A stretch of DNA of 49,903 bases, taken from the IMG/VR virus record IMGVR_UViG_3300017780_002852, positions 1 through 49,903 of that record, one strand, 5' to 3'. The notes under the pieces are model-generated. The model worked only from the letters and a program-made list of their open reading frames with translations. It did no database searches and was not told the DNA's origin. Below, one piece after another: positions 521-41,016 of this stretch. The position numbers and the translations under genes were made by a program. Position 1 is the first letter of the stretch. Each line of letters starts with the position of its first letter. Source of the DNA: a virus. Taxonomy: Duplodnaviria; Caudoviricetes.

Positions 521-1276
521 CTAGCCGTTGATGCGGCGTTGGACATCTTCAGCGCGGAGCTGCATGAACTGGCACTTGGGGCCGTTGTTGAAGAAGTCCT
601 CGGCACCCTCGATAGCACCCCTGTACACGCGGCGCATGGTCTTCTCAGAGTTGAGCCACGCGTTGCTCAGGGTACGGTACTCGATGCCGTAGGGCTTCGG
701 ACGATACGCCCCAGCCTTGCCGTAGAGCTGACGACGGATAGGATCGCGGTCCCATTCGAGGGAGGGGATGCCCAAGGTCACGTCAAGGTTGCGCGCCAGA
801 CGCCCACACAGGAGCAGGTGGTCACGGTCAACCTCGTCAGTCACACGAGCCCAGCCGATGTGGACGTGCCCAGACGCCGTGCGGATGGTCTGCTCGGCAT
901 TCGGGGACGGGTTCTTGTCGAACGTGTACGCCGAATAGTCCGGGTTGCAGCCCAGCTCGATGGCTTGGCGAGGGAGCTTGGAGAAGTACGCCTTCTGGTA
1001 CTGCACATACGGAGCAAGGTGGAACATATAACGCTCCGGGATCATGGCACGAACCTGCTCCATGACTTCCTTGACGTTGTGAACGAACTCGTCCTCGGAA
1101 GAGGCCGGGTCGGTGTTGAACTCGACAGCGGTGCCATCAACCTGCACAGCGCCGTGCTTGAGGATGTGGGGCTGCTCCTTGGTGCCCGGCACAAGGTCGT
1201 GAGCCGAGCGGTACGCGCCGTTCACGGTGTCGATCAGGAAGAACTCAGGATCGCAACCGATGGTGAACTTGGTCAT
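521..1276 (-). CDS. phiEco32-like COOH-NH2 ligase type 2
   Basis: Motifs TIGCDPEFF, DGTAVEFN, GCNPD, GHVHIG, YGKAG-R-KPYGIEYRTLSN. Confidence 0.9.
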   Translation of the reverse strand: MTKFTIGCDPEFFLIDTVNGAYRSAHDLVPGTKEQPHILKHGAVQVDGTAVEFNTDPASSEDEFVHNVKEVMEQVRAMIPERYMFHLAPYVQYQKAYFSKLPRQAIELGCNPDYSAYTFDKNPSPNAEQTIRTASGHVHIGWARVTDEVDRDHLLLCGRLARNLDVTLGIPSLEWDRDPIRRQLYGKAGAYRPKPYGIEYRTLSNAWLNSEKTMRRVYRGAIEGAEDFFNNGPKCQFMQLRAEDVQRRING

Positions 1277-1294
1277 GTGTGATAGATGCCTTCT

Positions 1295-2506
1295 CTAGTT
1301 GATCTTGGCTGGGACTTGGGCGATGTGACGAAGGGATGCGTCGGTATTGCAGATGTTGCAAAGAACGTCTCCGGTGGCCCCAACACCACAGTCTTTCAAC
1401 TCGTGGGGCTCAACAGAATCCTTGCAACAGAAAGCGCAACCGTTGTCAGAGAGAAGCTTGGCAACAAGCAGGTCTCCGGTGAGGATGGGAACAAGGGGAT
1501 CAACGATCTTTGCAGTCTCTTCCTCGGGAATATCGCCAGAGGCCCATTCAGCATAGATACGGTTCAGAGCCGTGACAAGACCCTCAAACCGCTTGCGCTG
1601 AGGCTTGGCCCATTTGTGCCGAGTAGAATGGTCGAAGCCGATCAGTTGCATCTCCATCCCTTGGATCATATTCAGTGCCGCTTGTTGCGGTGAGACCCCT
1701 TTCGACGGTTTATACCGTGTCGAGACCGGACCAACCCCCCTTCCTCCAGTCGTAGGCGGGATAGCTTTTTTTTCCGGTTCCTTACCCCCCTCGATACGCG
1801 TGATCGTCACGGACTCAGCGATGGGCTTACCAGAAGCCAGATCGAGTTCCATGAGAGTGTCCTCTTCGAGCAGACGCGGAAACTGCTCCAAGGTCTCAAT
1901 GCCGTTGCGCTGAAGAACCCAGTAGAGCATCTGGCCTTCAGATGCCCAATAGATTTTCTTCTTGTCCTTGGAGAAGGCGTAGGACAGGCTGCGTTCCTTG
2001 TTGCGGACGAAGCCAAGCTTCTTGTTCTCAGCATCGAGAAGAGCCAAAGCCCACGCACCCCAGATTTTCGGGAGGACCTTGTCGATGCCCTCCTTGGAGA
2101 TGTTGTAGATCAGCTTCTCGGAGTCAATGGCCCCTTTCAGTTCATGGGGCAGATTACCCAAGGCTTGGAACGGGATCATACCGTTGTGCATACCGACGAG
2201 ATCGTTCCAGTAGAACGGGTGGGCGTCCTCGTGGTTGTACTTGGATTGCCAGTCCGACGTGGACTTGCGGGTGTGACCCATGAGCACGTCATTGCGCGTA
2301 GTGATCATGTTGTCCACACGCCTGAGATCGATGAACGTGGAGCTGGGGACAGCACGCTTGAAGATGTCAACGGTGCCCGTCTTGGTCTCGAACCCGCAGA
2401 GGCCAGAGGCGTCGTTGCCCCTGACTTGGCTGTGGTAGAGCAGCTCCTTGAAAACATCGGTATCCTTGTGACCAAGGTCACCGGCAACGCCTGCAAGTCC
2501 ACACAT
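1295..2506 (-). CDS. Class II (Ntn) glutamine amidotransferase with C-terminal Cys-rich extension
   Basis: N-terminal MCG, RG-DASG, GHTR, AHPF, HNG, DSE; C-terminal CAFC...CNIC. Confidence 0.9.
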   Translation of the reverse strand: MCGLAGVAGDLGHKDTDVFKELLYHSQVRGNDASGLCGFETKTGTVDIFKRAVPSSTFIDLRRVDNMITTRNDVLMGHTRKSTSDWQSKYNHEDAHPFYWNDLVGMHNGMIPFQALGNLPHELKGAIDSEKLIYNISKEGIDKVLPKIWGAWALALLDAENKKLGFVRNKERSLSYAFSKDKKKIYWASEGQMLYWVLQRNGIETLEQFPRLLEEDTLMELDLASGKPIAESVTITRIEGGKEPEKKAIPPTTGGRGVGPVSTRYKPSKGVSPQQAALNMIQGMEMQLIGFDHSTRHKWAKPQRKRFEGLVTALNRIYAEWASGDIPEEETAKIVDPLVPILTGDLLVAKLLSDNGCAFCCKDSVEPHELKDCGVGATGDVLCNICNTDASLRHIAQVPAKIN

Positions 2507-3207
2507 TAAACGTTGGCCTCCTTAAAGCCAAGACTGGGAAGAACGTATTTGTTGACGTAGTTCAGGAAGAGCGCCTGACAGTTGGGGTATCCTTGAAATT
2601 CAGGGTGAGGCTGGAAGCACAGGCTGCGGGTGCCGGGATACCACATGGCCTCGATGTCGATGCCGTCGTGTTCCCACTTGCACGCTTCGGGGATCAGCTT
2701 CTTCGTGTTGGTGCGCTTGCTGACGCCGTCACGGTCGATGGCATACGCCAGAAGCTTGAACGGAATGTTCTGATCAGGCGTAGGTGCACGCATCATCTGG
2801 TGGTGAGTGGACGAGCAGAAGTACGCCTTCTTGTCATCGACGGAGTAGACCGGGTGGTCCATGACGTGGTCTTCGACGTGTTGCCACAGCTTACCTCCGT
2901 TCATGACGTTAAGGAACTGCCCACCACGGCAGATACCGATGAACGCACGCTTGATGTTGTCACCCTTGTTGATCAGGCGGTGATAGATTGAAGTCTCCAC
3001 CGCATCACGTTCAGGGTTGTTGGCCGTCCGGTTGAGCTTGGGCTCACCATACAGGGAGGGTGAAACGTCAGAGCCCCCCGTGAAGAGGATGATGTCAGCT
3101 TCTTCGTGGTCGAAGGTCACCGCGCCGAACAGGCCAGCGAGGCGCTTGTATTCCCCGTTACCCCCCTCGACGTAGACCATGGGGACTTTCTGCTCAGGCT
3201 TAGACAT
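2506..3207 (-). CDS. Class I glutamine amidotransferase / gamma-glutamyl hydrolase (peptidase C26-like)
   Basis: FTGGSDVSPSLYG, GICRGGQ (nucleophile Cys), STHHQ, QPHPE. Confidence 0.9.
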   Translation of the reverse strand: MSKPEQKVPMVYVEGGNGEYKRLAGLFGAVTFDHEEADIILFTGGSDVSPSLYGEPKLNRTANNPERDAVETSIYHRLINKGDNIKRAFIGICRGGQFLNVMNGGKLWQHVEDHVMDHPVYSVDDKKAYFCSSTHHQMMRAPTPDQNIPFKLLAYAIDRDGVSKRTNTKKLIPEACKWEHDGIDIEAMWYPGTRSLCFQPHPEFQGYPNCQALFLNYVNKYVLPSLGFKEANV

Positions 3208-4075
3208 ACGGTTTCACCTTGTTATCCCAGTACCACTTGTTCAGCAGCACGGGGTTCTTGAATGTATTCTTCTCGGCAAAGTCGTTGCCGTAGCGGTCTT
3301 GCTCCCTCGGCTGCCAGCTGTCAGGACCCTTCTTCGTCACACCAAGGAACAGCTTATCGGAGCTACCCCCCATGAACGTCTTCGGAGACTTGCCAGACGC
3401 GAGACTTTTCTTCGGGTCTGGCGTGTAACCGGCTTTCAGATAGCAGACAGCGGTGTTGGGGTACACCGACGCAGAGAAGTTGTTGTGCCCGCCGCCCCAG
3501 CTTTCAGTGTGGAGCTTGCCACCGATAGAGAGAATGTGGTTGGCGGCAAAAACGTTCCAACGCAGCGGAAGGTCCTTGGTCTCAGGAGCTTCGAGAAACA
3601 TCCTGAGAGATTGCCGCGCGCCGTTGAACTCGTAGGCACGACGGTTGAACACCGCAAAGCACCCCATCTCAGGGAGGCTGAGGGTCTTGAACGCAGTCTC
3701 ACCGTACACGATGCCCATGTAGGCAATCAGCTTGGCGCGATCCTCGGGAGTATCGTAGCCCTCCAGCTGTTCAGGCATGGCATCAAGCCACGGCTGCCAC
3801 GGGGAGTCAGGATGGGTGACCGCGTGGTACGTGTAGAACTCACGTTCAGCGAGGTCTTTGTTGTGGCCATGGCCAATGTACCCCGGGAGGAACCAGAACG
3901 GAAGCATCCCCTTGTCACAGGCGTAGTCGAAGCCTGCATAACAGCCCGTGCCGTGGCTGTCCAGATCAAAGCCGGTGCGAAACCCCAACCCGGCACACCC
4001 CACAGGGGCATCGTTGGAGTCCTTTTTGAATTTGTTGAGCAACTTCTCAACAAACTTGTTTCTCACGTCAATCAT
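3200..4075 (-). CDS. Hypothetical protein within amidoligase cluster
   Basis: 291-aa ORF overlapping both neighbours; no motif recognised. Confidence 0.75.
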   Translation of the reverse strand: MIDVRNKFVEKLLNKFKKDSNDAPVGCAGLGFRTGFDLDSHGTGCYAGFDYACDKGMLPFWFLPGYIGHGHNKDLAEREFYTYHAVTHPDSPWQPWLDAMPEQLEGYDTPEDRAKLIAYMGIVYGETAFKTLSLPEMGCFAVFNRRAYEFNGARQSLRMFLEAPETKDLPLRWNVFAANHILSIGGKLHTESWGGGHNNFSASVYPNTAVCYLKAGYTPDPKKSLASGKSPKTFMGGSSDKLFLGVTKKGPDSWQPREQDRYGNDFAEKNTFKNPVLLNKWYWDNKVKPYV

Positions 4076-4454
4076 GAGTGCGAACCCATGCTGCTACGTC
4101 TCCTTTGTAACGAACGTTTTGGTATTTCAGATGCCCACCTTTGGGCAGCTCTTCCTGAAGATACATCCACGCTTCAGGCATTCCGATGATACGAACCGGT
4201 TGGCGTTTGTACCACTGAGGATGCCCCTCCAGCCGGTCGAGCTGTGATAGATAAGCCACGTCCAGCACCCGGTACATCTCCACCTCAATGAGATGGGTAG
4301 CCGGTGCCTTGAAGACAATGGGGAAGCGGCCAGCTGACGCCATATGATAGCGATCAGCAGTCACAAAAGTACCCACGTAGCGAAAGCCGCGTGGGTCCAT
4401 CATGTGATTATTGTGGAAGCCTTTCTTGAGGCTACCGTATACGGCAATGTGCAT
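4068..4454 (-). CDS. Gamma-glutamylcyclotransferase (AIG2-like)
   Basis: AVYGSLKKG-N, LDRLEG-P-Y-R, AWMY. Confidence 0.9.
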   Translation of the reverse strand: MHIAVYGSLKKGFHNNHMMDPRGFRYVGTFVTADRYHMASAGRFPIVFKAPATHLIEVEMYRVLDVAYLSQLDRLEGHPQWYKRQPVRIIGMPEAWMYLQEELPKGGHLKYQNVRYKGDVAAWVRTHD

Positions 4455-4693
4455 CAGTCCTCCACCAGACCAAGCATATACGAGATAGCGCCGACAGAGG
4501 CGACGATGGAGATGAGGCCGAGGAGGAAAGCGAGGAGACCAGCCAGAAAGGCTGCGCCCGGTGCCCCACCAGCCCCAGCAAGCTCAGCTTGATTGCCGAA
4601 GTAGATGGTGGCTGCAATAAGGATAGCACAGCCAAACACCATCAGCCCGGAGTTGCCAATATGCTTGGCAAAAGCCAAAACGCGGTTCTTCAT
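4454..4693 (-). CDS. Small membrane protein (2 TM)
   Basis: Two hydrophobic stretches; abuts GGCT start. Confidence 0.7.
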   Translation of the reverse strand: MKNRVLAFAKHIGNSGLMVFGCAILIAATIYFGNQAELAGAGGAPGAAFLAGLLAFLLGLISIVASVGAISYMLGLVED

Positions 4694-4702
4694 GCGAGTC
4701 CC

Positions 4703-5005
4703 CTAATCTTTGACGGCTTTACTGTGCCCGACACGCAGCGACATGAGCACGGTCCATAGCGCCGACTGGTATTCCATGAAACGAGCAGCTGCCGTGGCTT
4801 CAAGCTGTCGCCAAGGGTGCTTCCCAAAAAGGAGGGACGTACCTGAGCTATGCTGATATATTGCTTGGGCTTGCTGCCAGTCTTGACGAGCTTTGGTTGT
4901 CCGCTCATAGTACTGCTCCAAATGCAAAGGAGACAGCTTTGTGGCTGCCTCCTTGTCCCAGTTCCTCTCTAGAAGGTCAACTGGGATTACTTTTGTCTTG
5001 CTCAC
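4703..5005 (-). CDS. Hypothetical protein
   Basis: First ORF downstream of the sigma70 promoter at 5074-5101. Confidence 0.65.
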   Translation of the reverse strand: MSKTKVIPVDLLERNWDKEAATKLSPLHLEQYYERTTKARQDWQQAQAIYQHSSGTSLLFGKHPWRQLEATAAARFMEYQSALWTVLMSLRVGHSKAVKD

Positions 5006-5073
5006 TAGCTGGTTAGTTACCTGCTGCTAGCTATCCTATATAATAGGTATCCAACGGCGGACCCTACATATAT

Positions 5074-5101
5074 ATTATAGCAGATTTCTAGAAGTTGTCA
5101 A
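5074..5101 (-). promoter_or_regulatory. sigma70-type promoter for amidoligase operon
   Basis: TTGACA-16nt-TATAAT with TG extended -10 on minus strand. Confidence 0.8.
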
Positions 5102-5283
5102 GCGTCAGGGTGTCGCAGGGGATTATCCGCTTGGAGGACCTGAATCAGTCTGTGTGAAACATCTGGGTTCTGCTTTCGTGACCTCTTGTAAGCCTCTTGA
5201 GCTTGCCCCAAGTTTGAGGATTTCATGACTTCATAGGGCATTCCATCGTTATACCCTATGAACTCCACAACAAATTTGGTCAT
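5098..5283 (-). CDS. Hypothetical protein
   Basis: MTKFVVEFIG..., ATG overlaps upstream stop, GAGGTGG RBS. Confidence 0.6.
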   Translation of the reverse strand: MTKFVVEFIGYNDGMPYEVMKSSNLGQAQEAYKRSRKQNPDVSHRLIQVLQADNPLRHPDA

Positions 5284-5558
5284 TCCACCACCTCGCAGAA
5301 GCTCACCCACTTGGCGTCAGTCCTCATAACGTGGTTACGCAGATCGACGTTGGAGGTGTATTGCTCCACCGTTATGACAGGCTGCTGCAAGGCACGGCAG
5401 GCATCTTCCCGGAGGACCCAAGCCTTGCCCTCAGCGCCCAAATATACGGGCACGTACCGAGTCTGGCAGGCTGTCAGGATCATCAGGAGCAGGACCAGCA
5501 GCATCCCCCGCAGCAACAGCAGCGTCTGCGGCTTCCCTTGATTGACGTTCGAGTTCAT
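5280..5558 (-). CDS. Lipoprotein, putative o-spanin (Rz1-like)
   Basis: Hydrophobic signal ending in lipobox LTAC; overlaps the 3' half of the upstream TM gene in another frame; GGAG RBS. Confidence 0.65.
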   Translation of the reverse strand: MNSNVNQGKPQTLLLLRGMLLVLLLMILTACQTRYVPVYLGAEGKAWVLREDACRALQQPVITVEQYTSNVDLRNHVMRTDAKWVSFCEVVE

Positions 5559-5706
5559 TGTTGGCTTTCTCCACTTCAACAGCCTTGGTGACTTCTTCGT
5601 TGGCTTGCTTGACGCTCTGGTCAGCCTTCCCCGCGTGATAGATACACCACAACAGGGTGATGACAGCGAGCCCGATAAGCCCATAGGCGATCAGCTGCTG
5701 TTCCAT
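5431..5706 (-). CDS. Putative i-spanin (Rz-like)
   Basis: N-terminal TM helix followed by Ala/Glu/Lys-rich helical region and Pro/Asp tail. Confidence 0.6.
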   Translation of the reverse strand: MEQQLIAYGLIGLAVITLLWCIYHAGKADQSVKQANEEVTKAVEVEKANNELERQSREAADAAVAAGDAAGPAPDDPDSLPDSVRARIFGR

Positions 5707-5707
5707 G

Positions 5708-5896
5708 CTAGTAAACATCCCAGATTGCGGTCAAGATGGCAAAGAGGAACACAGCTACCCCCAGCACCGCCAAGATAAGGAGGTAGACGCTCAAGAAGAT
5801 GAGGTTACGAGTGACCACGCTTGCGATGAACGAAGCAGGTGCTGCCACGATAAGGGCCGTGACGGCCAGCCTGCTGATAAATTCTGTCAGGGTCAT
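5708..5896 (-). CDS. Small membrane protein
   Basis: 62 aa, two hydrophobic helices. Confidence 0.65.
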   Translation of the reverse strand: MTLTEFISRLAVTALIVAAPASFIASVVTRNLIFLSVYLLILAVLGVAVFLFAILTAIWDVY

Positions 5897-5899
5897 GAG

Positions 5900-6286
5900 T
5901 TACCCGATGAACTTCTGCCAGAGGGTGTAGACGAAGCCAAGGTCCTTGTTGACCAAGGTGATCCACATGCCCGTCGAGCACATGGCGTTGATCATCCCGA
6001 GAACGGCGATGACGCCCGAAACCCACTGGAGGATGAACCAGCCGATGTAGTCATCAAAGTCCGCGTAGCCGTCGTTTTTGTCCTTCTCGCGGGAGATATG
6101 CCCGGTGGTGAAGACGGCGATGCCGACGAAGAGCGTGATGAAGACCACGTTCGTGATCAGACCGATCACGGCGGCAAGGAAGTTCACGTTGACCGCGAGT
6201 TCATAGGCTTTCGGGGCGATGTCCACCACCCCCTTCTCGATGCCGTCGAGGTATTCCAGAAGCTTGTCTTGCAGAGCTTGTTCCAC
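5900..6286 (-). CDS. Membrane protein (2 TM)
   Basis: GGAG RBS, two hydrophobic segments. Confidence 0.75.
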   Translation of the reverse strand: MEQALQDKLLEYLDGIEKGVVDIAPKAYELAVNVNFLAAVIGLITNVVFITLFVGIAVFTTGHISREKDKNDGYADFDDYIGWFILQWVSGVIAVLGMINAMCSTGMWITLVNKDLGFVYTLWQKFIG

Positions 6287-6310
6287 AGTTATCTCCGATT
6301 GCGCAACATG

Positions 6311-6339
6311 AAAACCCCTACAGCAAATGCCGTAAGGGC
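6311..6339 (-). terminator. Probable intrinsic terminator
   Basis: CCCTTACGGCA-TT-TGCTGTAGGGG-TTTT on minus strand. Confidence 0.55.
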
Positions 6340-6385
6340 CAGTATGTATTCCATTTTTTAGCTAGTCGGTCCCGCGTGTGATAGA

Positions 6386-6490
6386 TTACTTGTGGGGCTG
6401 CCAGCAATTGCAGTCCTGCGCCGGATAGAAGCAGAACTGACAGCGAACGACGGGCGTATAGTTCGTCGTTGAGAGAAGGCGATAGCGCAT
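6386..6490 (-). CDS. 34-aa Cys-rich peptide
   Basis: MRYRLLSTTNYTPVVRCQFCFYPAQDCNCWQPHK; ATG overlaps the upstream TAA; manual translation. Confidence 0.45.
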   Translation of the reverse strand: MRYRLLSTTNYTPVVRCQFCFYPAQDCNCWQPHK

Positions 6491-6684
6491 TAGTGTTGTT
6501 TCCCTTTCCTAGGGGTTACGTCAATGAGACAGCGAAAGCCGCGAGAGCGAACACGCTCCGCGACCTTCACAGCGTTCACATAGTCCCCGTAAATGAACGC
6601 CTGACAAGCGCGTCCATTCACGGTGTACACCAGCTTGTAGTATTCCATAGGGCTAGGCGGCGACCATCGCCTTGCCGCAACCAT
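6490..6684 (-). CDS. Early hypothetical protein (start may be the internal ATG of MEYYK)
   Basis: ORF in tightly packed early cluster. Confidence 0.5.
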   Translation of the reverse strand: MVAARRWSPPSPMEYYKLVYTVNGRACQAFIYGDYVNAVKVAERVRSRGFRCLIDVTPRKGKQH

Positions 6685-6907
6685 GGCGACCGACCTGCGG
6701 CTGGTTGCTCGGCGGGATGATCTTCACGAGGCCGGGGCGCTTGGCCATGCGGTCGGTGGCGTCGATGCAGTACTTGACCGCGTCGGCGTGGCTGCCCTTG
6801 TGGGCCAACACGATGGTCTGGCCCTGAACAAGCTTGCCCTTCTTCATGTAGACCGGCGGGATGAACACAATCTTGTGCATGAAGTTGTCAGCATAGGTCG
6901 ATTTCAT
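6653..6907 (-). CDS. Early hypothetical protein
   Basis: AAAGGGA RBS, biased codon usage. Confidence 0.7.
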   Translation of the reverse strand: MKSTYADNFMHKIVFIPPVYMKKGKLVQGQTIVLAHKGSHADAVKYCIDATDRMAKRPGLVKIIPPSNQPQVGRHGCGKAMVAA

Positions 6908-6927
6908 TTGGCAGTTCCCTTTGTTGA

Positions 6928-6957
6928 AGGCGCTAAGCGCCCGCCCTTGTGATAGAT
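6928..6957 (-). promoter_or_regulatory. Conserved intergenic element, copy 1
   Basis: AGGCGCTAAGCGCCCGC-N4-GTGATAGAT (+ strand), repeated at 7334-7363. Confidence 0.7.
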
Positions 6958-6958
6958 G

Positions 6959-7165
6959 TTAACGACGACTGTAGGCGCGATACGCGCGATACGACGTGGT
7001 GCTAAGCTCTTTCTTGAGTTCTTTCACCTCAACAATAAGAAGCCTCATACCGTCAATAAGGCTTTTGACTGCGTAGGTGTACTCTCCTTCATCAGGAGGG
7101 ATGTTTTGGACAATGCTCTCCGCAACGCGAAGCCGCGCTTCCAAGTGATCAAGGTGTGCGCTCAT
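6959..7165 (-). CDS. Early hypothetical protein (coiled-coil)
   Basis: MSAHLDHLEARL..., ATGA overlap with upstream ORF. Confidence 0.6.
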   Translation of the reverse strand: MSAHLDHLEARLRVAESIVQNIPPDEGEYTYAVKSLIDGMRLLIVEVKELKKELSTTSYRAYRAYSRR

Positions 7166-7317
7166 GCCTTGGCTGTCACGTCTTGGTGGGCAACCCAGCC
7201 TGCCCTCACCTGCCGGTTTGCTTCTTGCACATCCTTGCTTTTGCAATTCCACCCGACAGTCCCCTCACGCAGCGCGATCTCACGCAGCATGTAACCAATC
7301 TGAAACCACGTAATCAT
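7162..7317 (-). CDS. 51-aa early hypothetical protein
   Basis: MITWFQIGYMLREIALREG...; AAGGG RBS; manual translation. Confidence 0.55.
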   Translation of the reverse strand: MITWFQIGYMLREIALREGTVGWNCKSKDVQEANRQVRAGWVAHQDVTAKA

Positions 7318-7333
7318 GGCGTACCCTTGCGTT

Positions 7334-7363
7334 AGGCGCTAAGCGCCCGCATGTGTGATAGAT
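7334..7363 (-). promoter_or_regulatory. Conserved intergenic element, copy 2
   Basis: Same 17-bp + N4 + 9-bp arrangement as 6928-6957. Confidence 0.7.
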
Positions 7364-7371
7364 ACCGACGC

Positions 7372-7405
7372 AAAAAAGCCCACGCCCCGTGAAGGGCGCA
7401 GGCTT
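7372..7405 (-). terminator. Intrinsic terminator
   Basis: AAGCCTGCGCCC-TTCAC-GGGGCGTGGGCTTTTTT on minus strand after 7428. Confidence 0.8.
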
Positions 7406-7427
7406 CAGTTTGCGGGGGAGGGTAGGG

Positions 7428-7973
7428 TTAGGCGGCTTTCGGGACCAGCTTCAGGCCGTGCGCGGGTTTCACCTCGCTCAGCGCCTTGATATAGGCTTGC
7501 GCGGCGGGAATGTCGAGATCAGCCGCGACGCGGTCGTTCTCAATCGCCTTGTCCAGCCGTTTCGCGAGGCGTTCAATCGCCTTCACGATGGCGTCAGCAT
7601 CCATCGCGCGCGGGTCTTTCTCCGCCGTGTGGTCCCAGTACATGACAGCCGCGAGGCCGTCGAGGTTCCAATCGGTAAAGCCCTTTTCCTCAGGCTTGAG
7701 GATGCGCGATCCCTTTTCCACCGCCACGTCATCCTTCAGTTTCAGGCGGATGGGCGTGAAGTCATACAGCCACGCCGTAAAGGCTTTCTTCCGGGTCGCC
7801 GTGTGGAGCGCGTTGTAAAGGTCAACAAACAGCGTCATATCGCCGTGTTCCTTCGCGTGTGCCGCCATACCGAGAGAGGTCGAATGGATCAACTCGGCAA
7901 GCTTGCCCCCCATTGCCGCGATTTGACGGATGGAAGAGCGGAAGGCTTTCTTAGTGTCAGACATGGGTAGCAT
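7428..7973 (-). CDS. Conserved early phage protein (HGD-motif family)
   Basis: SIRQI...HAKEHGDMT...RKKAFTAW pattern recalled from early proteins of other podophages; function unknown. Confidence 0.8.
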   Translation of the reverse strand: MLPMSDTKKAFRSSIRQIAAMGGKLAELIHSTSLGMAAHAKEHGDMTLFVDLYNALHTATRKKAFTAWLYDFTPIRLKLKDDVAVEKGSRILKPEEKGFTDWNLDGLAAVMYWDHTAEKDPRAMDADAIVKAIERLAKRLDKAIENDRVAADLDIPAAQAYIKALSEVKPAHGLKLVPKAA

Positions 7974-7988
7974 CCTTGCAAAAGGGCT

Positions 7989-8261
7989 CTAGCGATTGCT
8001 AAAGCGTTTGGGGTTGGCGGGCGTGATAGATTCGAACCGTTCGGTTCTCCCATAAGGCGAATGCCCGCCGCGTGCGCCTTTGGATTGGAGATGCTGCGTT
8101 GTCATAGGGGAAGCAATGTCGCTTTCCCGTTTCACCTCACGCAGCGAAATGTGCAGATTGTCATTGACTTGCGAGGCACGCCACATGGCGCCTAGCTTTG
8201 CCAGCTTGCGTTCCCGTTTCCCGGGTCGGATGTGCTTACCCACGGGGAATAACCATATCAA
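7989..8261 (-). CDS. Basic early hypothetical protein (start uncertain)
   Basis: ORF fills the gap between early genes. Confidence 0.45.
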   Translation of the reverse strand: MIWLFPVGKHIRPGKRERKLAKLGAMWRASQVNDNLHISLREVKRESDIASPMTTQHLQSKGARGGHSPYGRTERFESITPANPKRFSNR

Positions 8262-8454
8262 CGTGGAAACCCTGCCGCGTATAGGACGCGTATGCCCGTT
8301 CGGCGTTGGCGCGACTGTCCAAGGGATACATAACCGTGTCCCACTGGCCTAGCGGCTGGCCGTCCCGATTGTCCGGCATTCCGACGCCGCGCCAAACGTG
8401 CAGCGATATGTAACCGTCGCGCGTGTCTTTCGCGCCAGATTTGAAAACGTTCAA
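8236..8454 (-). CDS. First early hypothetical protein
   Basis: GGGAG RBS upstream of TTG start. Confidence 0.55.
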   Translation of the reverse strand: MNVFKSGAKDTRDGYISLHVWRGVGMPDNRDGQPLGQWDTVMYPLDSRANAERAYASYTRQGFHVDMVIPRG

Positions 8455-8898
8455 GGCACAATACTCCCGTTGTTGACACTCAAAGGTTGAGTGTTTTGTC
8501 AGTGGCTACTAAGCGCGAGCATAGCTCCGCCTTTGGCCAAAACCGGCTTTTCAGGCCGGTGCGATTTATCCCCAACGTTTCCCAAGCTGCCCCCATGCAC
8601 ACAACGCGCATGGCTTCACCCAGTACTCGGCAAGAGCACACAAGCGCGGCAAGAGATAAGGCCGCTATGAGGTCGCACGGGTTCGCATTCCCCCAAAGGA
8701 GGGGCTTGGTTCTTCCGGCCACAAAAGGACCATACACCACCCCGCCCCAGATACCATATCGATAATCGATAAACCACCACTTGTGATAATTATTACACAC
8801 CTTGTAACGATGTTCACGCCTCCCCGGGCGAGCGTGATAGATGTTACAAAGCGAGGAGAACGCGCGAGGGGGAGAAGAACGCGTACATACGCGCGAGA

Positions 8899-8914
8899 TG
8901 CAAGACCCGTGCCA
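8899..8914 (-). promoter_or_regulatory. sigma54 -24/-12 consensus site
   Basis: TGGCACG-GGTC-TTGCA on minus strand. Confidence 0.75.
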
Positions 8915-9076
8915 TTCATCCCATATCGCCAAGTCGAACCCCTCCGCTACCCATCCCTAGGCGGACGGGAACTCGCGAGTGCGGGCCATCCCTGCCCCGG
9001 CAAGAGGCATGAACGAAAGGGGAACATGATATCACCTGACGTTACGTCATACTGAGATTTTCTAAACAGTCGTGCT

Positions 9077-9213
9077 TGATACTCATGCAAGTAACGTGCC
9101 ATGGCTATATTACAAATGTAACATCGGGATACCCATTGATACTGATGCAAGTAACGGGCCAGATTATGTTTGTAATACAACGGGGTGATGATACTGATGC
9201 AAGTAACGTGCCG
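9077..9213 (-). repeat. Three 24-bp direct repeats, each carrying a sigma54 -24/-12 site
   Basis: TGATACT(C/G)ATGCAAGTAACG(T/G)GCC at 9077, 9137 and 9189; minus strand reads TGGCACG/TGGCCCG/CGGCACG-TTAC-TTGCA. Confidence 0.85.
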
Positions 9214-9536
9214 TGTTAGTCCTGATGCCTGAATTCTGAATACTGAATACTTTGCTCAACGTTCAGTGTTCAGTGAAACATCCTGTAACATTAATTGAAC
9301 GGGGAGGGGATTGACTTCCCTTACGCCCATATGATAAGATGAACGCGGGGGGTAGCCAAGGGGGGTCATGGGGGCCTTCCTCTGTGCAATGACACACGTT
9401 TTCATATTCTCCAAGAAATTCTCAGAATATTGGCCCGTGACTCCCTTGACAAATTTCCCGGATGCGGCATTTGAGCCTCTATGGACTTTTCTGTCGGTCT
9501 TCTCTAGAAACAGAATGGCTTTTTCTTAAAAGCCTC

Positions 9537-9565
9537 TTGACTTTTGTTTCAAAATATGCTATAAT
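9537..9565 (+). promoter_or_regulatory. sigma70-type promoter for the structural arm
   Basis: TTGACT-17nt-TATAAT with TG extended -10. Confidence 0.85.
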
Positions 9566-9776
9566 ATAGATGTAATCCAAAACAAGATACAACAACATCC
9601 CTACTAATGGCAGTCCTTCAGTAATGAAGACAGCCTGTCGGCTGTGGGTTTGCTGAACGCCACAGCAACAACGCTGGTGAGTCTACTAGAATCCTCCCAT
9701 ATATTAGGAGAGGGCTGAATTTCAAAATCGGTAATCAAGCCTTTGCTTGGTTGATCCTTACCTAAAGGGGCGCTCT

Positions 9777-11864
9777 ATGTCTAAGATTGAAGAACTGACC
9801 GACATCAACGCCTCTTATACAGGCATCTCCAAACTCAATAGCCATCTGGCCAAGATTGAGACTGCGTTCCAGAATACCCTGAGTAGGGATGGATCGACGC
9901 CTAACCACATGCTTGCTGACATTGACATGAATAGTCAGCAACTGATCAATCTGGGTACACCCACCCTTGGTCACCACGCTGTAACAAAATCGTATCTGGA
10001 CGCTATTGCGTTTGATGGCTCGGTAGACTTGGCTCTCCCGGGCCGTATTAAATTCTACAACACGTACTCTGACATGCAGTCTGAGTCTGTGGATGGGGGC
10101 CTTGAGGCCAATGCGGTGTTCTGCACAGCAGGACGCTCAGCGGCTGGTGACGGGGGCTTTGGCTTCTGGCGCGTCAGGTCGGGATCAACGACAGATAACG
10201 GTGGCACAGCTATCAACCATAGCTCCTTGAGCTTCTACTTCGAGCGCCTGCACGACGGGATTTTCAACGTAGACTGGTTTGGTTCTGAGTTCGGTGCTGC
10301 GGCGACAGCAGCTGTTACAGCCTTCCCTTCTGTCGGTGGGTATCTTAAAACCACCCCGGGTAAGCACTACACGGCTACTACCCAGTTCGCGATCCCGCGC
10401 ACAAAGAACTTCTACACCATTGATATGCAAGGTTCCCGGTTTACGTGGAGCTACACAGGGGGTTCCCCGATCAAGGTTGGTGATGGCATAGCCCAGACTC
10501 AAGGGGCGGTGTTTATTGGCTACGGGTCGTACATGGAGCAGTCTGTCTCCGCGACTAACGCCCTCTTCGAGATCAGGGGTCTTCGGAACCTGTACACCCT
10601 TGGGCTGAAGGGTGCCGGTATCTACAGCCTCTGCAAATGGGGTGACCCGGCAGATGCCCAGTCCTGCTACCAGTGGTGGCACAAGGACTGTGAATGGAAT
10701 ATGAACACAACGGCCCACTCCCACCTTATCAATGCAAACGGGTCGGCTGGTGGTTACTACGAGACCGACACCTATATTGAAGGTGTGCTTGCCAACGCTG
10801 CGACTACGGCTGCCTTCTACCTTGACATCAACCAAGGCCCGGCAAGGTTTGACGGGATGAGCCGGAACGGCGGAATCTGGAAGTACTTCGACTACGGAGT
10901 GTACGCGGAAAACGCTCGCATCGTCAACTTTGACTGGTCAAGCTCCGTCCGAACAGATGATATGAAAGACTGGTGCTTCCGTGTCCTTGTCAACTCCCTT
11001 GGTGTCAAGGGTGGTTGTGAGGGCATCAATATTCGTGGGACATTCAGTGGCGGGCAACAAGGTGGTGGGGTCTGGCTCTCCAACGAGTCCGGGGCTGCCG
11101 CTGCTGTAATCCAGAACGTCTCGGTCTCCGATGTTCAGACTGCAAACCTTGTGGAAGCTTTCTTCAAGGCAACAACCACAGGTACAGGGACGATGAAGCA
11201 ACTTCACGTCCACAACAACTACCTGTCGGACTACAACACGTCGTCCAACAACGTTGACTGTATCGTTCTTGATGGAGACATCACTGAGTCCTCAGTCTCC
11301 GGGAATACCATGGACCGTAAGAATGGTTCATCGTTTACCCCCAGATACCTCATCTACAATAACACAGCCTCCACCAAATCCATCTGGATCACAGCTGATA
11401 ACTCGACTATTGACGCCAACACAGGGGTTGTCTACGATCCCAACATTGGTGACCTGTCAATCAAAAGGTTCTGCGCACTCCACGGGGATGGGACCCCGCG
11501 TAAGGCTTATCCCCTTACCTTTGTCCAGACCAACTTTGCTGCGTCTCAGACAGACGTTGCCATGGAGTCGGCCACGGGTATCGGGACATTCTACCGTGTT
11601 CCCAACCGCTCGCGAGTCACTGAAATCTCTACATCCCTGAACGCAGCCGTTGCGGCGGGGTCGCTTACAATTGGATACGGGGTGGCTACTATCGATCCCA
11701 ACCTCGATATTGTCCACACATCTGGCACAGGCTCGACAGTCCGTTACGTGTCTGGTTCAGCCGCTCTGGCTGCCGGAGACTCGGTCTTTGTCAGGTACAC
11801 AACCAATGCTGGCGTCACATTGAACATTGACGGTTCGGCTACCGTCTGGGTTCAGGAGATGTAA
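9777..11864 (+). CDS. Tailspike / tail fibre, probable beta-helix depolymerase
   Basis: N-terminal anchor (LSRDGSTPN-M-DIDMNS) shared with gene at 22164; GR-AGDGG-G and NVDWFG tailspike neck motifs; Asn/Gly/Ser-rich beta repeats; ATG 9777 follows AAAGGGG. Confidence 0.8.
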   Translation: MSKIEELTDINASYTGISKLNSHLAKIETAFQNTLSRDGSTPNHMLADIDMNSQQLINLGTPTLGHHAVTKSYLDAIAFDGSVDLALPGRIKFYNTYSDMQSESVDGGLEANAVFCTAGRSAAGDGGFGFWRVRSGSTTDNGGTAINHSSLSFYFERLHDGIFNVDWFGSEFGAAATAAVTAFPSVGGYLKTTPGKHYTATTQFAIPRTKNFYTIDMQGSRFTWSYTGGSPIKVGDGIAQTQGAVFIGYGSYMEQSVSATNALFEIRGLRNLYTLGLKGAGIYSLCKWGDPADAQSCYQWWHKDCEWNMNTTAHSHLINANGSAGGYYETDTYIEGVLANAATTAAFYLDINQGPARFDGMSRNGGIWKYFDYGVYAENARIVNFDWSSSVRTDDMKDWCFRVLVNSLGVKGGCEGINIRGTFSGGQQGGGVWLSNESGAAAAVIQNVSVSDVQTANLVEAFFKATTTGTGTMKQLHVHNNYLSDYNTSSNNVDCIVLDGDITESSVSGNTMDRKNGSSFTPRYLIYNNTASTKSIWITADNSTIDANTGVVYDPNIGDLSIKRFCALHGDGTPRKAYPLTFVQTNFAASQTDVAMESATGIGTFYRVPNRSRVTEISTSLNAAVAAGSLTIGYGVATIDPNLDIVHTSGTGSTVRYVSGSAALAAGDSVFVRYTTNAGVTLNIDGSATVWVQEM

Positions 11865-15071: not shown

Positions 15072-15338
15072 TTGCCCGCAATGACCCTTGCGCAAAAACG
15101 TGCAGCTAAGAAATACAACGCAAAACCGGAACAGATCAAACGGCGATCAAGCCGTAACAAGGCCCGCCGCAAAATGATCAAAGCAGGTAAAGCCAGAAAA
15201 GGTGATGGTAAAGACGTTGGACACAAAAATGGTAACCCCCTCTCAAACAAACGCTCTAACCTCAGAATGCAATCCAAACGGAGCAACCGCTCCTTCGCCC
15301 GCACCAAAACGGCGCGGAAGAAAAACCCGCGCGACTAA
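15072..15338 (+). CDS. Small basic HNH-like endonuclease (terminase-associated)
   Basis: KGDGKDVGHK-G-N-SNLR-S-NR; AGGAG RBS. Confidence 0.7.
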   Translation: MPAMTLAQKRAAKKYNAKPEQIKRRSSRNKARRKMIKAGKARKGDGKDVGHKNGNPLSNKRSNLRMQSKRSNRSFARTKTARKKNPRD

Positions 15339-16917
15339 GGATACTGTAGCTACAGATACCCCGTCTGTAGACATTACGGAAAACGACATCCGGGTTGCAG
15401 CCGAAGCTTCATTTGAAGAGTTCGTTCGGCTTGTAGCCCCTAGGAATGTGTTCGGGCACGTTCACATCGAACTGTGTCAATGGCTGAGCCGGAAGGATGC
15501 TAAAGATCACCAGCTCGTCTTGATGCCACGAGATCACGGTAAGTCCCGGTACGCTGCTTTCTACGCTTTGTGGGAGATCGTGCGAAACCCCGCAATCCGT
15601 ATCTTGTATATCTCGTCTACCGCGAACCTTGCCGAGAAACAACTCGGCTTCATCAAAGACATCATGCAGAGCGCCAAATTCCGCCGTTACTGGCCGGAGA
15701 TGACGCACGAGGATGAAGGCAAGCGCAAGAAGTGGACTAACTCGGAGATCATGGTCGATCACCCTAAACGGGTGGAAGAAGGTATCCGAGACCCGACGGT
15801 GATGATCGCCGGTCTTGAGAAGTCCATTACGGGTCTGCACTTTGACCTCGCTATCCTTGATGACGTTGTTGTCCAAGAGAACGCTTACACAGAAGAAGGC
15901 CGTGACAAAGTCAAAAGACAGTATTCTCTTCTGGCGTCTATCGAAGGTGCAGATGCTAAAGAGGTTGCTGTTGGTACTCGTTACCACCCCGCTGATCTTT
16001 ATGCTAACATGCTCGCTATGGAGTATGTCCCTGTTGATGAAAATGGAGAGGAAGGCGAACCTGAGAAAATCTACGAAATCTTTGAAAGACAAGTAGAGGA
16101 CGCAGGAGACGGTACTGGCCAATTTCTCTGGCCGACACAGACAGGGTCCAATGGTCAGACCTTTGGGTTTAATAGAAACATCCTTGCCAAGAAAAAAGCA
16201 AAGTACATCGATCAAACTCAGTTCAGGGCCCAGTACTACAATGACCCAAATGACACTTCTTCTGCCGCTATCGGACGTGACAAGTTTCAATACTTCGATC
16301 CAGCCTTCCTTAAGTTTGATGGTAGACACTGGCACATACAGGGACGGCGGCTCAATATTGCTGCTGCTATCGACTTCTCGTATTCTACAAGACTGCGATC
16401 TGATTATACCGCTATCGCCGTTGTGGGAATAGACGCAGACCGTAGGCACTACATTCTTGAGATCGACAGGTTCAAGACCTCAGAGATCAGGGACTACTAC
16501 CAACACATCCTTGATCTGTACAAGAAGTGGGATTTCAGAAAGCTCGTGGCCGAAGTCTCTGCCGCCCAGCAGGCCATCGTCAACGAACTCAAAAGCTCCT
16601 ACATCGTCCCCAACGGTATCATGCTGTCGGTGGTTGAGGTCAAGCCTACACGCCACGACGGGACCAAGGAAGAACGCCTGAAGGCTATCCTTGAACCCCG
16701 CTACCAGAATATGTCTGTCTGGCACTACCGTGGTGGCAACTGTCAGGTTCTGGAAGACGAGCTTGTCTTGCAGCACCCGCCCCACGATGACTGCAAAGAC
16801 GCAGTCGCCAACGCCTTTGTGAACCTTTCCCCTCCTGCCTCTATGATGTTTGGGGAAGCAAACAAGAACGTCGTTCAACTTAAGAGCCATCCCAAATTCG
16901 GTGGACTTGGAGGATAA
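15202..16917 (+). CDS. terL: Terminase large subunit (true start probably near 15340-15375)
   Basis: Walker A PRDHGKS, Walker B AILDD, GTRYH, QYYN, nuclease IDFS...SDYTA and HDDCKDA. Confidence 0.92.
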   Translation: MMVKTLDTKMVTPSQTNALTSECNPNGATAPSPAPKRRGRKTRATKDTVATDTPSVDITENDIRVAAEASFEEFVRLVAPRNVFGHVHIELCQWLSRKDAKDHQLVLMPRDHGKSRYAAFYALWEIVRNPAIRILYISSTANLAEKQLGFIKDIMQSAKFRRYWPEMTHEDEGKRKKWTNSEIMVDHPKRVEEGIRDPTVMIAGLEKSITGLHFDLAILDDVVVQENAYTEEGRDKVKRQYSLLASIEGADAKEVAVGTRYHPADLYANMLAMEYVPVDENGEEGEPEKIYEIFERQVEDAGDGTGQFLWPTQTGSNGQTFGFNRNILAKKKAKYIDQTQFRAQYYNDPNDTSSAAIGRDKFQYFDPAFLKFDGRHWHIQGRRLNIAAAIDFSYSTRLRSDYTAIAVVGIDADRRHYILEIDRFKTSEIRDYYQHILDLYKKWDFRKLVAEVSAAQQAIVNELKSSYIVPNGIMLSVVEVKPTRHDGTKEERLKAILEPRYQNMSVWHYRGGNCQVLEDELVLQHPPHDDCKDAVANAFVNLSPPASMMFGEANKNVVQLKSHPKFGGLGG

Positions 16918-36363: not shown

Positions 36364-37260
36364 ATGGCTCTACCAGCAGCTATGCGAGCAGCCGCCAAGG
36401 TTGCTAAGGAAACTGCCGCCCTTGATGAAGTCGTCGAGGTGGGTGGTCGCTCCATGTCCAAGCGGGACCTGATCAAGTTTGAGATTGAGAAGATGCTTCG
36501 GTCCAACGGCTCGCAAGCCGATGTGACCAAATCTCTCAAGTCACAAGGTATCACCTTTGACAATGAGTGGATCAAGAATCAGATTGCCGTTGCCAAGCGA
36601 AGGGACATGACCCTCAAGCCTGATCCTCGTCAACGCAAGATGGAGGCAAACTGGGTTATTGAAAAAGGCCTAGGAGAAGGCAAGACGTGGGAACAGATTG
36701 GAGTTGACCTTCAAGACGCTGGGTTCAAGAAGGGTGGAGAGATGGCCCTCCACGCCAAGTCCATGTACTACAAGCGGCTCATGAGCAAGCCCGAGCCAGC
36801 CGTGATAGATAACGGTGAGTCGGGCCCCAACGCTGGGCCGCAAGATGGGGACTACCGTATGCCCCAGAAGTTGACAGATGAGGAGTTGATGGGCGCTTTG
36901 AAGGCCGCTGCTGAAGAAGCAAGCAAGCGGGCGAAGAACCAGACTCGTGCTGCCCGGGAACGAGGAGCTGCTAGCATCAACTCGTTTGATTGGTCTGGTC
37001 TTGATGAGTTGGCAAAGATGTGGTCTGATCCGGGGTACAAGAACCCGGAACTTATTGATCCTAAGATGTCTGGGAGCCTGCCTGATGGCCCGGCTCGTCC
37101 GTCTGATATGGACGTTATCACAGCAGAACGGATGCCAAAGACTGAAGAAGAGATGTCAGCCACCTTCCCTCGGGGTTTCAACTACGACACGGCCAGCCCA
37201 GAGGACCAGAAGCGATGGCGGGAGACTGCTGCGGAAGCAGACCGGCGTAACAAACAATAA
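36364..37260 (+). CDS. Hypothetical protein with two HTH-like repeats
   Basis: IEKMLRSNGSQADVTKSLKSQGI and IEKGLGEGKTWEQIGVDLQDAGF. Confidence 0.7.
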   Translation: MALPAAMRAAAKVAKETAALDEVVEVGGRSMSKRDLIKFEIEKMLRSNGSQADVTKSLKSQGITFDNEWIKNQIAVAKRRDMTLKPDPRQRKMEANWVIEKGLGEGKTWEQIGVDLQDAGFKKGGEMALHAKSMYYKRLMSKPEPAVIDNGESGPNAGPQDGDYRMPQKLTDEELMGALKAAAEEASKRAKNQTRAARERGAASINSFDWSGLDELAKMWSDPGYKNPELIDPKMSGSLPDGPARPSDMDVITAERMPKTEEEMSATFPRGFNYDTASPEDQKRWRETAAEADRRNKQ

Positions 37261-39583: not shown

Positions 39584-39658
39584 TGGTGCCAAGAGAGAGG
39601 ATTGAACTCCCGACCGGCTGCTTACAAAACAGCAGCTCTGCCACTGAGCTATCTTGGC
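39584..39658 (-). tRNA. tRNA-Thr(UGU)
   Basis: Cloverleaf: GCCAAGA/TCTTGGC acceptor, GCTC/GAGC D-stem, loop TT-TGT-AA, TTCAATC T-loop, encoded CCA. Confidence 0.93.
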
Positions 39659-39727: not shown

Positions 39728-40117
39728 TCATCCGTTTCGTCCAGTCTTTTCTTTCCAGATTCGGACTTCTTCTTGGATGTATTTGCTAACTGTCGAAGTC
39801 TGCGAAGCTCCTTCTGGTGCTCTTTCAGTTCGTCCGGGTCCATCTTTCGTTTCTTTCAGAATCATATCAAGGGCGATAACGAGACGTGTGATTGCGTGCG
39901 CTAGGTGGTTTTCCCCACTTTCGTCAATCTCTGAGATTGCGTCCCATTTGTAGATATGGCCAAGGGCCTTCTTGACTTGGTGGTCAATACCCTTGGGGCC
40001 AAGAGGGTCTACACCCTGCCACCCAAACGCTGCGTGCTTCTCAGCCCCGTGCTCAAAGACCCGTTCAACGGATGCCATGACCTCGGGAGGAAAGTACTCA
40101 GTCTTCGGATTCGTCAT
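39728..40117 (-). CDS. DUF5664-like dATP/dGTP diphosphohydrolase domain protein
   Basis: VFEHGAEKH-W...ALGHI-W...DESG-NHLAHA-RL. Confidence 0.75.
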   Translation of the reverse strand: MTNPKTEYFPPEVMASVERVFEHGAEKHAAFGWQGVDPLGPKGIDHQVKKALGHIYKWDAISEIDESGENHLAHAITRLVIALDMILKETKDGPGRTERAPEGASQTSTVSKYIQEEVRIWKEKTGRNG

Positions 40118-40274
40118 ATTCGTACCCCAGCTCAGATAGGATGGAATCAAGATTTCTTTTAACTCGACTAGGAAACGCTTTGAGAAGTTCTCCGACGGAG
40201 ATGTCGAGGAACTCTGCAAGCTCTCCTGCTGTCCATCGTCTGTCAATCAGTTCTCCTAGTTCATCGAGGTCCAT
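40098..40274 (-). CDS. 58-aa acidic hypothetical protein
   Basis: MDLDELGELIDRRWTAGELAEFLDISVGELLKAF...; manual translation, overlaps both neighbours. Confidence 0.6.
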   Translation of the reverse strand: MDLDELGELIDRRWTAGELAEFLDISVGELLKAFPSRVKRNLDSILSELGYEYDESED

Positions 40275-41016
40275 AGATTTCTTTCAACCTCCGCAAAGAT
40301 ACCCACTCTAGGTCATAATCTCCATTCTCGACTCCTCGTTTGATGACAACTCCAGAGGACCAATATCGTGCTGAAGCGCGCGCGAAAGGAGGGACGTAAT
40401 CTTGAAAGACACCACAACTGAGACCATGTATTCGCTGACCGCCTCCTCGGACTCGAACTGCATGGTCAAAGAGGTGTGAGTGTCCTTGCGTTGCAGAGTT
40501 AAGTTGCTTGGAGAGAATGGCAGCGCCAAGGTTAACGCCGCCGATAGGACGGCCCATGATCCCTGAAGCGAAATAGTGTGAGTATTGGATTCCATCAATT
40601 TCAACAATCTCTAAGAAGGGGTGCTCTTCGATACCGTATTCACGAGATTGGAAATCTCTTGTAGAGATTGTCCCGTCAAGGATAGGGTCCATGTCGAGCA
40701 CTCGAAGTAGACGGTGTTCGTGATTTCCCAAACATCGGACGATGCGGGGGCGTTTACGGTGGTTTTTTCGGACCACCGAGAGTAGTCGGTCTTGAGCCTC
40801 GACACCTGAAGCAATGTCAAGATGGTATCGGTTATTCTCGAAGCCTCTTTTACCTTTGTCGTAAGAGCAGAGGGATGGCATGTCAAACCAATCTCCAATG
40901 TCCACCACTGTGTCGGGCCGAACATCTGCGATGAGTTTACCGAGATACGTATATCGTTCGTTTGAATGTTGAGGATGTGCATGGCTGTCCGGGATGATCA
41001 GGTGGGTCTTAGACAT
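40261..41016 (-). CDS. Calcineurin-like metallophosphoesterase
   Basis: DSH, GDWFD, GNHE, SH, GHSH motifs. Confidence 0.88.
   Translation of the reverse strand: MSKTHLIIPDSHAHPQHSNERYTYLGKLIADVRPDTVVDIGDWFDMPSLCSYDKGKRGFENNRYHLDIASGVEAQDRLLSVVRKNHRKRPRIVRCLGNHEHRLLRVLDMDPILDGTISTRDFQSREYGIEEHPFLEIVEIDGIQYSHYFASGIMGRPIGGVNLGAAILSKQLNSATQGHSHLFDHAVRVRGGGQRIHGLSCGVFQDYVPPFARASARYWSSGVVIKRGVENGDYDLEWVSLRRLKEIYGPR

Follow-up and report, generated by a model that had tools for sequence, protein, structure and literature searches.

Why should one nine-letter word stand eleven times on one strand of a phage genome, crowded at its early end, and never on the other? The word, GTGATAGAT, lies in the IMG/VR virus record IMGVR_UViG_3300017780_002852, whose 49,903 nucleotides (nt) were analysed as a whole and are referred to here as the window. 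Read on the strand of the early genes the word is ATCTATCAC, the form used below. Sequence comparison suggests that ATCTATCAC is probably the recognition site of programmed single-strand nicks in the packaged DNA; a small HNH nuclease-like protein encoded at 15081-15338 is predicted to be its reader and cutter.

An exact count over both strands of the window gave 11 copies of GTGATAGAT on + and 0 on −, which confirms, site by site, the copies listed by an earlier sequence-only reading and its remark that the opposite orientation is empty. The strong excess over chance that it had proposed is equally clear. In 100 shuffles of the window the mean was 0.26 copies and the largest count 2, and against Markov backgrounds of order 2 and 4 (expected 0.13-0.21 copies) GTGATAGAT ranks first among the window 9-mers, with P = 4e-18 and 8e-16, respectively. 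The next 9-mer reaches 1e-6 to 1e-7, and the over-representation of GTGATAGAT is about ten orders of magnitude above that of any other 9-mer in the window. Since the flanking bases vary freely, the word is exactly nine letters long. It has a single one-mismatch neighbour, at 17830 and of opposite polarity; on the motif strand 0 one-mismatch words were observed against 2.8-3.7 expected, a mild depletion only (P 0.03-0.06). The copies of ATCTATCAC, each placed by exact count, are as follows.

8834-8842, − strand: copy 1, the first in the early arm; a nick is predicted at ATCT/ATCAC, 8839 and 8838 being the bases on either side, with the cut position taken over from phage tf
8023-8031, − strand: copy 2
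7355-7363, − strand: copy 3, with a 30-nt flank in common with copy 4
6949-6957, − strand: copy 4, with a 30-nt flank in common with copy 3
6378-6386, − strand: copy 5
5635-5643, − strand: copy 6
4244-4252, − strand: copy 7, within a gamma-glutamyl cyclotransferase gene (4068-4454)
2980-2988, − strand: copy 8, within a glutamine amidotransferase gene (2506-3207)
1279-1287, − strand: copy 9, 2 nt ahead of the start codon of a COOH-NH2 ligase (gene 521-1276)
45008-45016, − strand: copy 10, in the first codons of the DNA polymerase (43200-45023)
36802-36810, − strand: copy 11, within a late gene of the opposite strand (36364-37260, +), genome polarity unchanged

Nine of the eleven copies fall inside 7.6 kb (P 7e-5 on the circle), and gap size rises with rank (Spearman 0.83, permutation P 0.002). 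The gaps had been said to grow along the early arm, which holds as a trend but not step by step, as the first three decrease (811, 668, 406). The idea of an oriented DNA signal also stands, in that a genome-polar signal crowded at the early end is supported.

As had been noticed, copies occur both between genes and inside coding sequences. The in-gene copies lie in differing frames and on both gene strands, and a peptide or codon origin of ATCTATCAC was rejected for this reason; a tandem or long repeat as the source of the array was rejected as well. Could the word act in transcription, as promoter, operator or antitermination site, or serve to load an ejected virion protein? Ten of the eleven copies are co-oriented with early/middle transcription, several stand just ahead of genes, and the flank shared by copies 3 and 4 would suit such an element. 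Yet the spacing to start codons is not fixed, and the nine sigma-70-like sites in 4900-9800 all lie clear of the copies, so that the word is no simple sigma-70 promoter. Furthermore, a transcription signal is disfavoured because the 36802 copy keeps genome polarity inside an opposite-strand gene, against transcription. As to a loading site, internal virion proteins are not common to the window and tf. We give this pair of readings the least credence of those considered.

A closely similar arrangement is described in four published accounts. In tf, 14 ligase-sealable nicks all lie on the top (early-sense) strand at TACT/RTGMC, 11 of them in the left half, and the sites are nicked in more than 90% of virions (PMC3517423). 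Rembedalsseter has 13 breaks at WACTRTGAC, inside and outside genes and of unknown function; in a 2025 survey this consensus was enriched in 60 relatives of Rembedalsseter, with no enrichment outside the 61-phage cluster (PMC11780129). Read ends pile up at GTACTATGAC in the LUZ24-like phage P1-14Or01 (PMC3634792), and UFV-P2 has 15 sites (PMC3890496). The excerpts of these four accounts name no nickase for the tf/LUZ24-like nicks. As it was for WACTRTGAC that the survey reported no enrichment beyond its cluster, variant words such as ATCTATCAC were invisible to it.

The window array resembles the tf/LUZ24 system in being a 9-mer on the early-gene sense strand only, in 8-17 copies inside and outside genes, with a density that peaks at the early end and then thins along the genome. 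ATCTATCAC shares six of nine letters with TACTATGAC, the mapped nick site of LUZ24-like phages, at equal length and with the same strand and gradient, and the TACTATCAY of ICP2, one base from the LUZ24 word, bridges the two. Both kinds of phage have two convergent arms, a peptide-ligase cluster and an HNH gene of PHROG 4590. In contrast to tf/LUZ24, the word here is ATCTATCAC, a predicted nick site carried by a Zobellviridae-like phage with unrelated terminase and capsid, and the HNH gene lies at the large terminase gene (terL) rather than in the replication arm. A tblastn search with the terL, portal and capsid of the window found no match in tf, Ab22 or Bjorn, which places the window outside the LUZ24-like cluster. 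The sequence-only reading had not recognised the motif as a described one; this is correct for its exact letters but not for the arrangement and most of the letters, which match published nick sites. Among the papers listed in searches of an open-licence library we found none that links this word, Zobellviridae nicks or a small HNH protein to the tf/LUZ24 nicks, nor one with the changed letters, the spread to Zobellviridae or the residue-base rule given below. The arrangement is already known; the letters, the spread and the rule appear to be new. According to PMC3517423, the nicks of T5 (sciA/sciB) and phiKMV-like phages are likewise one-strand, site-specific, of unknown purpose and denser in one half. 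The consensuses of both are unrelated to ATCTATCAC.

A first set of 56 records of relatives was assembled and submitted to a de novo word scan, followed by a position-aware scan and targeted counts (x/y denotes copies on the early/opposite strand; G numbers are our record labels). The blind scan recovered the known nick site as top word in tf (11/0), Ab22 (8/0), Bjorn (17/0) and LUZ24 (9/0), and gave top words of ATCTATCAY type in G013, G015, G017 and G026. Relatives carry lineage variants of the word (TCCTATCAY, TGCTATCAY, TACTATCAY and GTCGGTS), and in the position-aware scan and targeted counts every one of their arrays stands on the early strand and thins out in the same manner. ATCTATCAY or RTCTATCAY was counted in G013 (16/0), G015 (11/0), G017 (13/0) and G023 (5/1); TCCTATCAY in G026 (10/0), G025 (5/0), G027 (5/0) and G018 (4/0); TGCTATCAY in CVT22 (8/0) and Asterion (6/1); WGCTATCAY in Pecta (12/1); TACTATCAY in ICP2 (6/0); CTCTATCAY in G029 (5/1); and ATCAGTCAT in G012 (6/0). 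G002 has an array of 7/1, G007 has GGTCGGTG (11/0) and GTCGGTG (12/0), and a spring virus has GTCGGTC (6/1). Scan noise reaches about 1e-6 to 1e-9, and the weaker arrays rest on agreement with their own clade. The word scans gave no word above noise in ICBM1, SIO1, P12053L, CRP-5, T5S1, 177E37-1, O4, T2S2, RIO-1, BA6 and G030.

Two other kinds of word were seen in these records. G008, G009, G041, G048, G049 and G054 have dense dispersed palindromic words on both strands, in 10-28 copies clustered in early regions (TCACACGTGTGA, TCTTAAGA, TACTAGTA, TTACAAGCTTGTAA-like words and GTTTACAST..ASTGTAAAC), which look like a separate operator-like system. TCCGGGT in G039 (9/0) and TCCGGG(A/T) in G046 (14/7) may be a further target type of the HNH family; TCCGGG(T/A) as a word common to the HNH subtype of G039, G042, G043, G046 and G057 was rejected, being one-strand only in G039.

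Which protein could read such a word? The candidate gene and its neighbour are:

15081-15338, + strand: 85-residue basic HNH nuclease-like protein, candidate reader and nickase (PHROG 4590, E 2e-16; weak Pfam HNH_3)
15202-16917, + strand: terL, with an open frame that starts inside the HNH gene

The Pfam HNH_3 match (E 2e-4) lies below the family cut-off. In the family alignment His48 and Asn69 are invariant and Asn60 nearly so, in keeping with HNH nucleases, which have a catalytic His on the first strand, a structural Asn and, on the helix, an Asn or His that binds metal. The predicted model (predicted local distance difference test score, pLDDT, 85) has two helices followed by a beta-beta-alpha unit, with strands 44-48 and 61-65 and helix 66-69. 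Among solved structures the only sequence match is I-HmuI (PDB 1u3e, E 0.02), and the best fold rows are two HNH nucleases, one of them a nickase (Z 3.9, root-mean-square deviation (rmsd) 7.9 over 71; Z 3.7, rmsd 6.4 over 74), then Z 3.5. A wide VIA fold search gave no match with Z of 5 or more. By these weak matches (Z 3.5-3.9, E 0.02) the protein resembles I-HmuI and small terminase-associated HNH nucleases (GVE2 HNH, 5h0o; Gme nicking HNH, 4h9d) in its small beta-beta-alpha fold, its presumed nicking chemistry and, in the window clade, its terL-adjacent gene. HK97 gp74 is another small terminase-associated HNH nuclease. Unlike these, the window protein has no zinc cysteines and a long basic helix before the HNH core, its gene position is not fixed, and its target is spread over the early arm rather than being a cos site. 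The terL frame is +1 to the HNH gene, with in-frame starts at 15202, 15205 and 15229 and no start codon after the HNH stop; the overlap (15202-15338) is seen in several clade members and may reflect translational coupling or a frameshift fusion.

A profile search found an HNH homologue in every near-complete motif-bearing record, including tf, Ab22, Bjorn and LUZ24, and a six-frame search found the family absent from 16 records. ICBM1 has neither the gene nor an array. Until the profile was built, tblastn had matched the HNH open reading frame (ORF) only in the near clade; its lack of a match in the phage collection is a failure of sensitivity, since ICP2, CVT22 and tf hold the gene. Of the 58 ORFs that were first put through tblastn, not one occurred in every motif-positive genome while being absent from every motif-negative one. 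The HNH gene occupies four genome positions, among them a place ahead of terL in the window clade, one between tail or lysis genes in ICP2 and the CVT22 group, and the replication arm in the G018 group, tf and LUZ24. In tf (L111:16126-16413) and LUZ24 (L254:123-431) the HNH frame overlaps the annotated hypothetical genes tf_29 and gp26 in another frame, and these two may be mis-called.

The link between gene and array was measured with a template taken from the first set, in which 13 fragments shorter than 37 kb were excluded, and with 22 further records chosen solely for carrying the HNH gene. The template test was passed by 20 of 49 HNH-positive genomes (15/27 first-set and, at this looser cut, 5/22 new) and 0 of 16 HNH-negative ones (nominal Fisher P 0.0013), with control templates at 16/260. 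A stricter cut gave 12/49, 0/16, controls 5/260 and new set 1/22. Several of the gene-chosen records have a word that fits their HNH type, namely G053 (TCCTATCAY 7/1, the blind top match), G040 (ATCTATCAY 5/0), G038 (GWCGGTC 11/0), G036 (MCTATGAC 6/0), G049 (7/0), G041 (7/1) and G051 (14/1). The HNH-negative genomes occupy several separate places of the terL tree, and where the terminases are unrelated the motif still goes with the HNH gene (no terL match in tf; 23-28% in G007, G038 and G040). The pattern is that the HNH gene is necessary, not sufficient, for the array. Two HNH-negative genomes have borderline one-strand graded words, VpV262 (L187; GACRTGGA 12/1) and RIO-1 (L173; TACAWGACG 7/1); both are at noise level, and they are possible counter-examples to the link.

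Does the protein also set the letters? Residue 26 of the HNH protein is Asn in 22/22 records with C at motif base 7 and His in 5/5 with G, in 27 motif-bearing records selected and registered by hand (LUZ24 was left out as identical to Ab22). It is the sole column of 84 whose core state splits base 7. In the HNH tree His26 has three separate origins (tf clade, G007 and G036), each near an Asn/C relative (ICP2, 97/93; G038, 99/88; and the G051 group; 89 columns, with many forks open). G007 (His, GTCGGTG) and its HNH sister G038 (Asn, GWCGGTC) form a natural pair; the words of G036 (His) and G038 were found after the rule had been noticed. The word with base 7 swapped is at background in 10 of 10 records checked. 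A residue rule for motif bases 4-5 was rejected, as only a poorly aligned N-terminal column split them.

These results bear on a Chi-like site read by host RecBCD/AddAB and piled up at the first-injected end. Chi sites are likewise short, polar and over-represented, and polarity and end-proximal clustering fit. However, phages of enterobacterial hosts carry TGCTATCAY, which is unrelated to the enterobacterial Chi GCTGGTGG. The word changes from one phage lineage to another and in step with a residue of a phage protein, and so is not set by the host, and the homologous word of tf is a nick site (PMC3517423). A Chi-like role is thus very unlikely. Because the word family spans phages whose hosts are Vibrio, Citrobacter, Klebsiella, Erwinia and Pseudomonas, and changes along with a phage-gene residue, none of the three mechanisms offered by the sequence-only reading is favoured, be it a Chi-like site, the loading of an ejected or host protein, or antitermination.

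A further possibility is that the sites are nicked by another enzyme, such as the terminase nuclease domain, a host nickase or the following gene product, and that the HNH gene merely travels along.

41009-41377: T7 endonuclease I homologue

Endonuclease I homologues are present in the window clade, ICP2, tf, Ab22 and Bjorn, and many HNH-positive genomes are without an array, as this account would predict. On the other hand, endonuclease I and close terL homologues also occur in the motif-free ICBM1, SIO1, P12053L and CRP-5, endonuclease I was not detected in the motif-bearing CVT22, Pecta and Asterion, the motif family spans unrelated terminases, and HNH residue 26 tracks base 7. We regard another cutter as quite unlikely.

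The HNH protein might instead read the word and leave no lasting nick in the virion, either by binding only or by nicking transiently, for the start of recombination-dependent replication or for loading of the packaging motor. In the window clade the residue ahead of the catalytic His is Gly, Ala, Met or Glu instead of Asp, the HNH gene overlaps the terL frame, and nicking in this clade is a prediction, all of which would fit. Against it, the His and the helix Asn are invariant, and some active beta-beta-alpha nucleases, Serratia nuclease and I-PpoI among them, likewise have Gly-His and only one Asn as ligand. The tf orthologue resides in a phage whose sites, of the same layout, are nicked in over 90% of virions (PMC3517423). 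This alternative also appears unlikely.

Several observations weigh against a nick site cut by the HNH protein. The nicks in the window are predicted, the sole matching run, which may be its source, being assembled contigs of flat depth that show no starts or ends and so speak neither for nor against nicks. WACTRTGMC is absent from the window as an array, which makes the window a variant of the tf/LUZ24 system and no member. The window protein has Gly before the catalytic His48, where 33 of 51 family rows have the metal-binding Asp, and its fold scores are weak (every Z below 4). The template and its cut-off were set after the first-set values had been seen; 29 of 49 HNH-positive genomes fail the test, the new set passing at only 5/22 or 1/22; three of the 20 passes (G018, CW02 and G047) are words not read as the motif; and, the genomes being related, the Fisher P of 0.0013 overstates the association. 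The motifs of G036, G041, G049, G051, ICP2 and CW02 individually fail to beat genome-wide noise, and the weak motifs were picked post hoc. An array predicted beforehand for phiEco32, which has a tf-type His protein, was not found (1 and 2 copies). VP41s3, MEP401, G042, G043 and G048 carry the HNH gene with no array found, as do most distant marine records, and in G004 GCTATCAY is 7/6, without strand bias. G037 (His) is a fragment without the early arm. Of the two nicked phages T5 and phiKMV, neither has a PHROG 4590 match (0/2).

Taken together, our data are consistent with a model in which the HNH protein would be made late, along with the terminase, and would lay its long basic helix on the word. 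In replicated DNA the ATCTATCAC strand would then be cut after base 4, ATCT/ATCAC, as at TACT/RTGMC in tf, and the DNA of a virion would have as many as 11 ligatable nicks, every one on the early-arm strand that is not the template. With nicks confined to that strand, the early template would stay whole. The purpose is the weakest step. Our first choice, put forward tentatively, is that nicks may let the DNA swivel or flex at the end that meets the highest capsid pressure, in packaging or ejection; the main alternative is protection against host defence.

The following features bear on the genome ends:

49781-49903, no strand: 123-nt copy of bases 1-123 inside coding sequence, read as an assembly overlap and probably no physical terminal repeat
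8900-9746, no strand: divergent non-coding stretch between the early (−) and late (+) arms, the presumed site of the genome ends
9537-9565, + strand: sigma-70-like promoter in the divergent stretch

With its 123-nt end overlap inside coding sequence, the assembly is circular and 49,780 bases long, and the gap of 6051 that the sequence-only reading had drawn across the junction is correct. In the records of ICBM1, RIO-1 and tf the genome ends lie between two divergent arms. We infer from these that the physical end is near 8.9-9.7 kb, in the divergent stretch, and that the array begins within about 1 kb of the early end. Three 27-nt repeats in this AT-rich region (9077-9215, core TGATACTSATGCAAGTAACG, spacing 60 and 52) are candidate packaging or origin signals near the presumed ends.

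By its sequence, and formal taxonomy aside, the window is a Zobellviridae-like podophage from a freshwater metagenome. Its terL is 50-57% identical to those of SIO1, ICBM1, CRP-5 and ICP2, and in the terL tree its clade adjoins or groups with Cobavirinae. It has the terL, portal, capsid and tail related to SIO1/ICBM1/ICP2, the two convergent arms and the 40-50 kb of Zobellviridae. PHROG matches of 54 ORFs place small genes, the peptide-ligase cluster, primase-helicase, polymerase, nucleases and ribonucleotide reductase in the early/middle arm on −, and tail fibres, terL, portal, capsid, tail and internal proteins in the late arm on +. The peptide-ligase cluster (521-4454 and 47739-49618) comprises gamma-glutamyl cyclotransferase, two glutamine amidotransferases, COOH-NH2 ligase, amidoligase and ATP-grasp, and is also found in RIO-1, tf and CVT22; a perfect sigma-70 consensus promoter (TTGACA-16-TATAAT with TG) stands ahead of it at 5074-5101 on the − strand. 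The middle arm contains a tRNA-Thr(TGT) at 39584-39658 and a dATP/dGTP diphosphohydrolase-domain gene at 39728-40246.

Phage DNA with programmed nicks has been on record for five decades, still without a purpose assigned to the nicks. Our results place such arrays, spelled differently, in a second phage family and name one small gene as the likely cutter, and the residue-to-base rule comes with a natural test pair, G007/G038. On balance, and with less assurance than for the window itself, we favour the view that PHROG 4590 is both the missing tf/LUZ24 nickase and a widespread family of site-specific nickases of about 85 residues with a readable code (Asn26 reading C and His26 reading G at base 7, N-terminal subtypes setting the 5' letters), each with a self-written one-strand array in Zobellviridae, LUZ24-like and other podophages. 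If this is true, loss of one gene would yield nick-free virions, and the 50-year-old question of what the nicks are for would become directly testable. The window HNH protein has at least 1443 related protein clusters, from which very small nickases for other targets could also be drawn.

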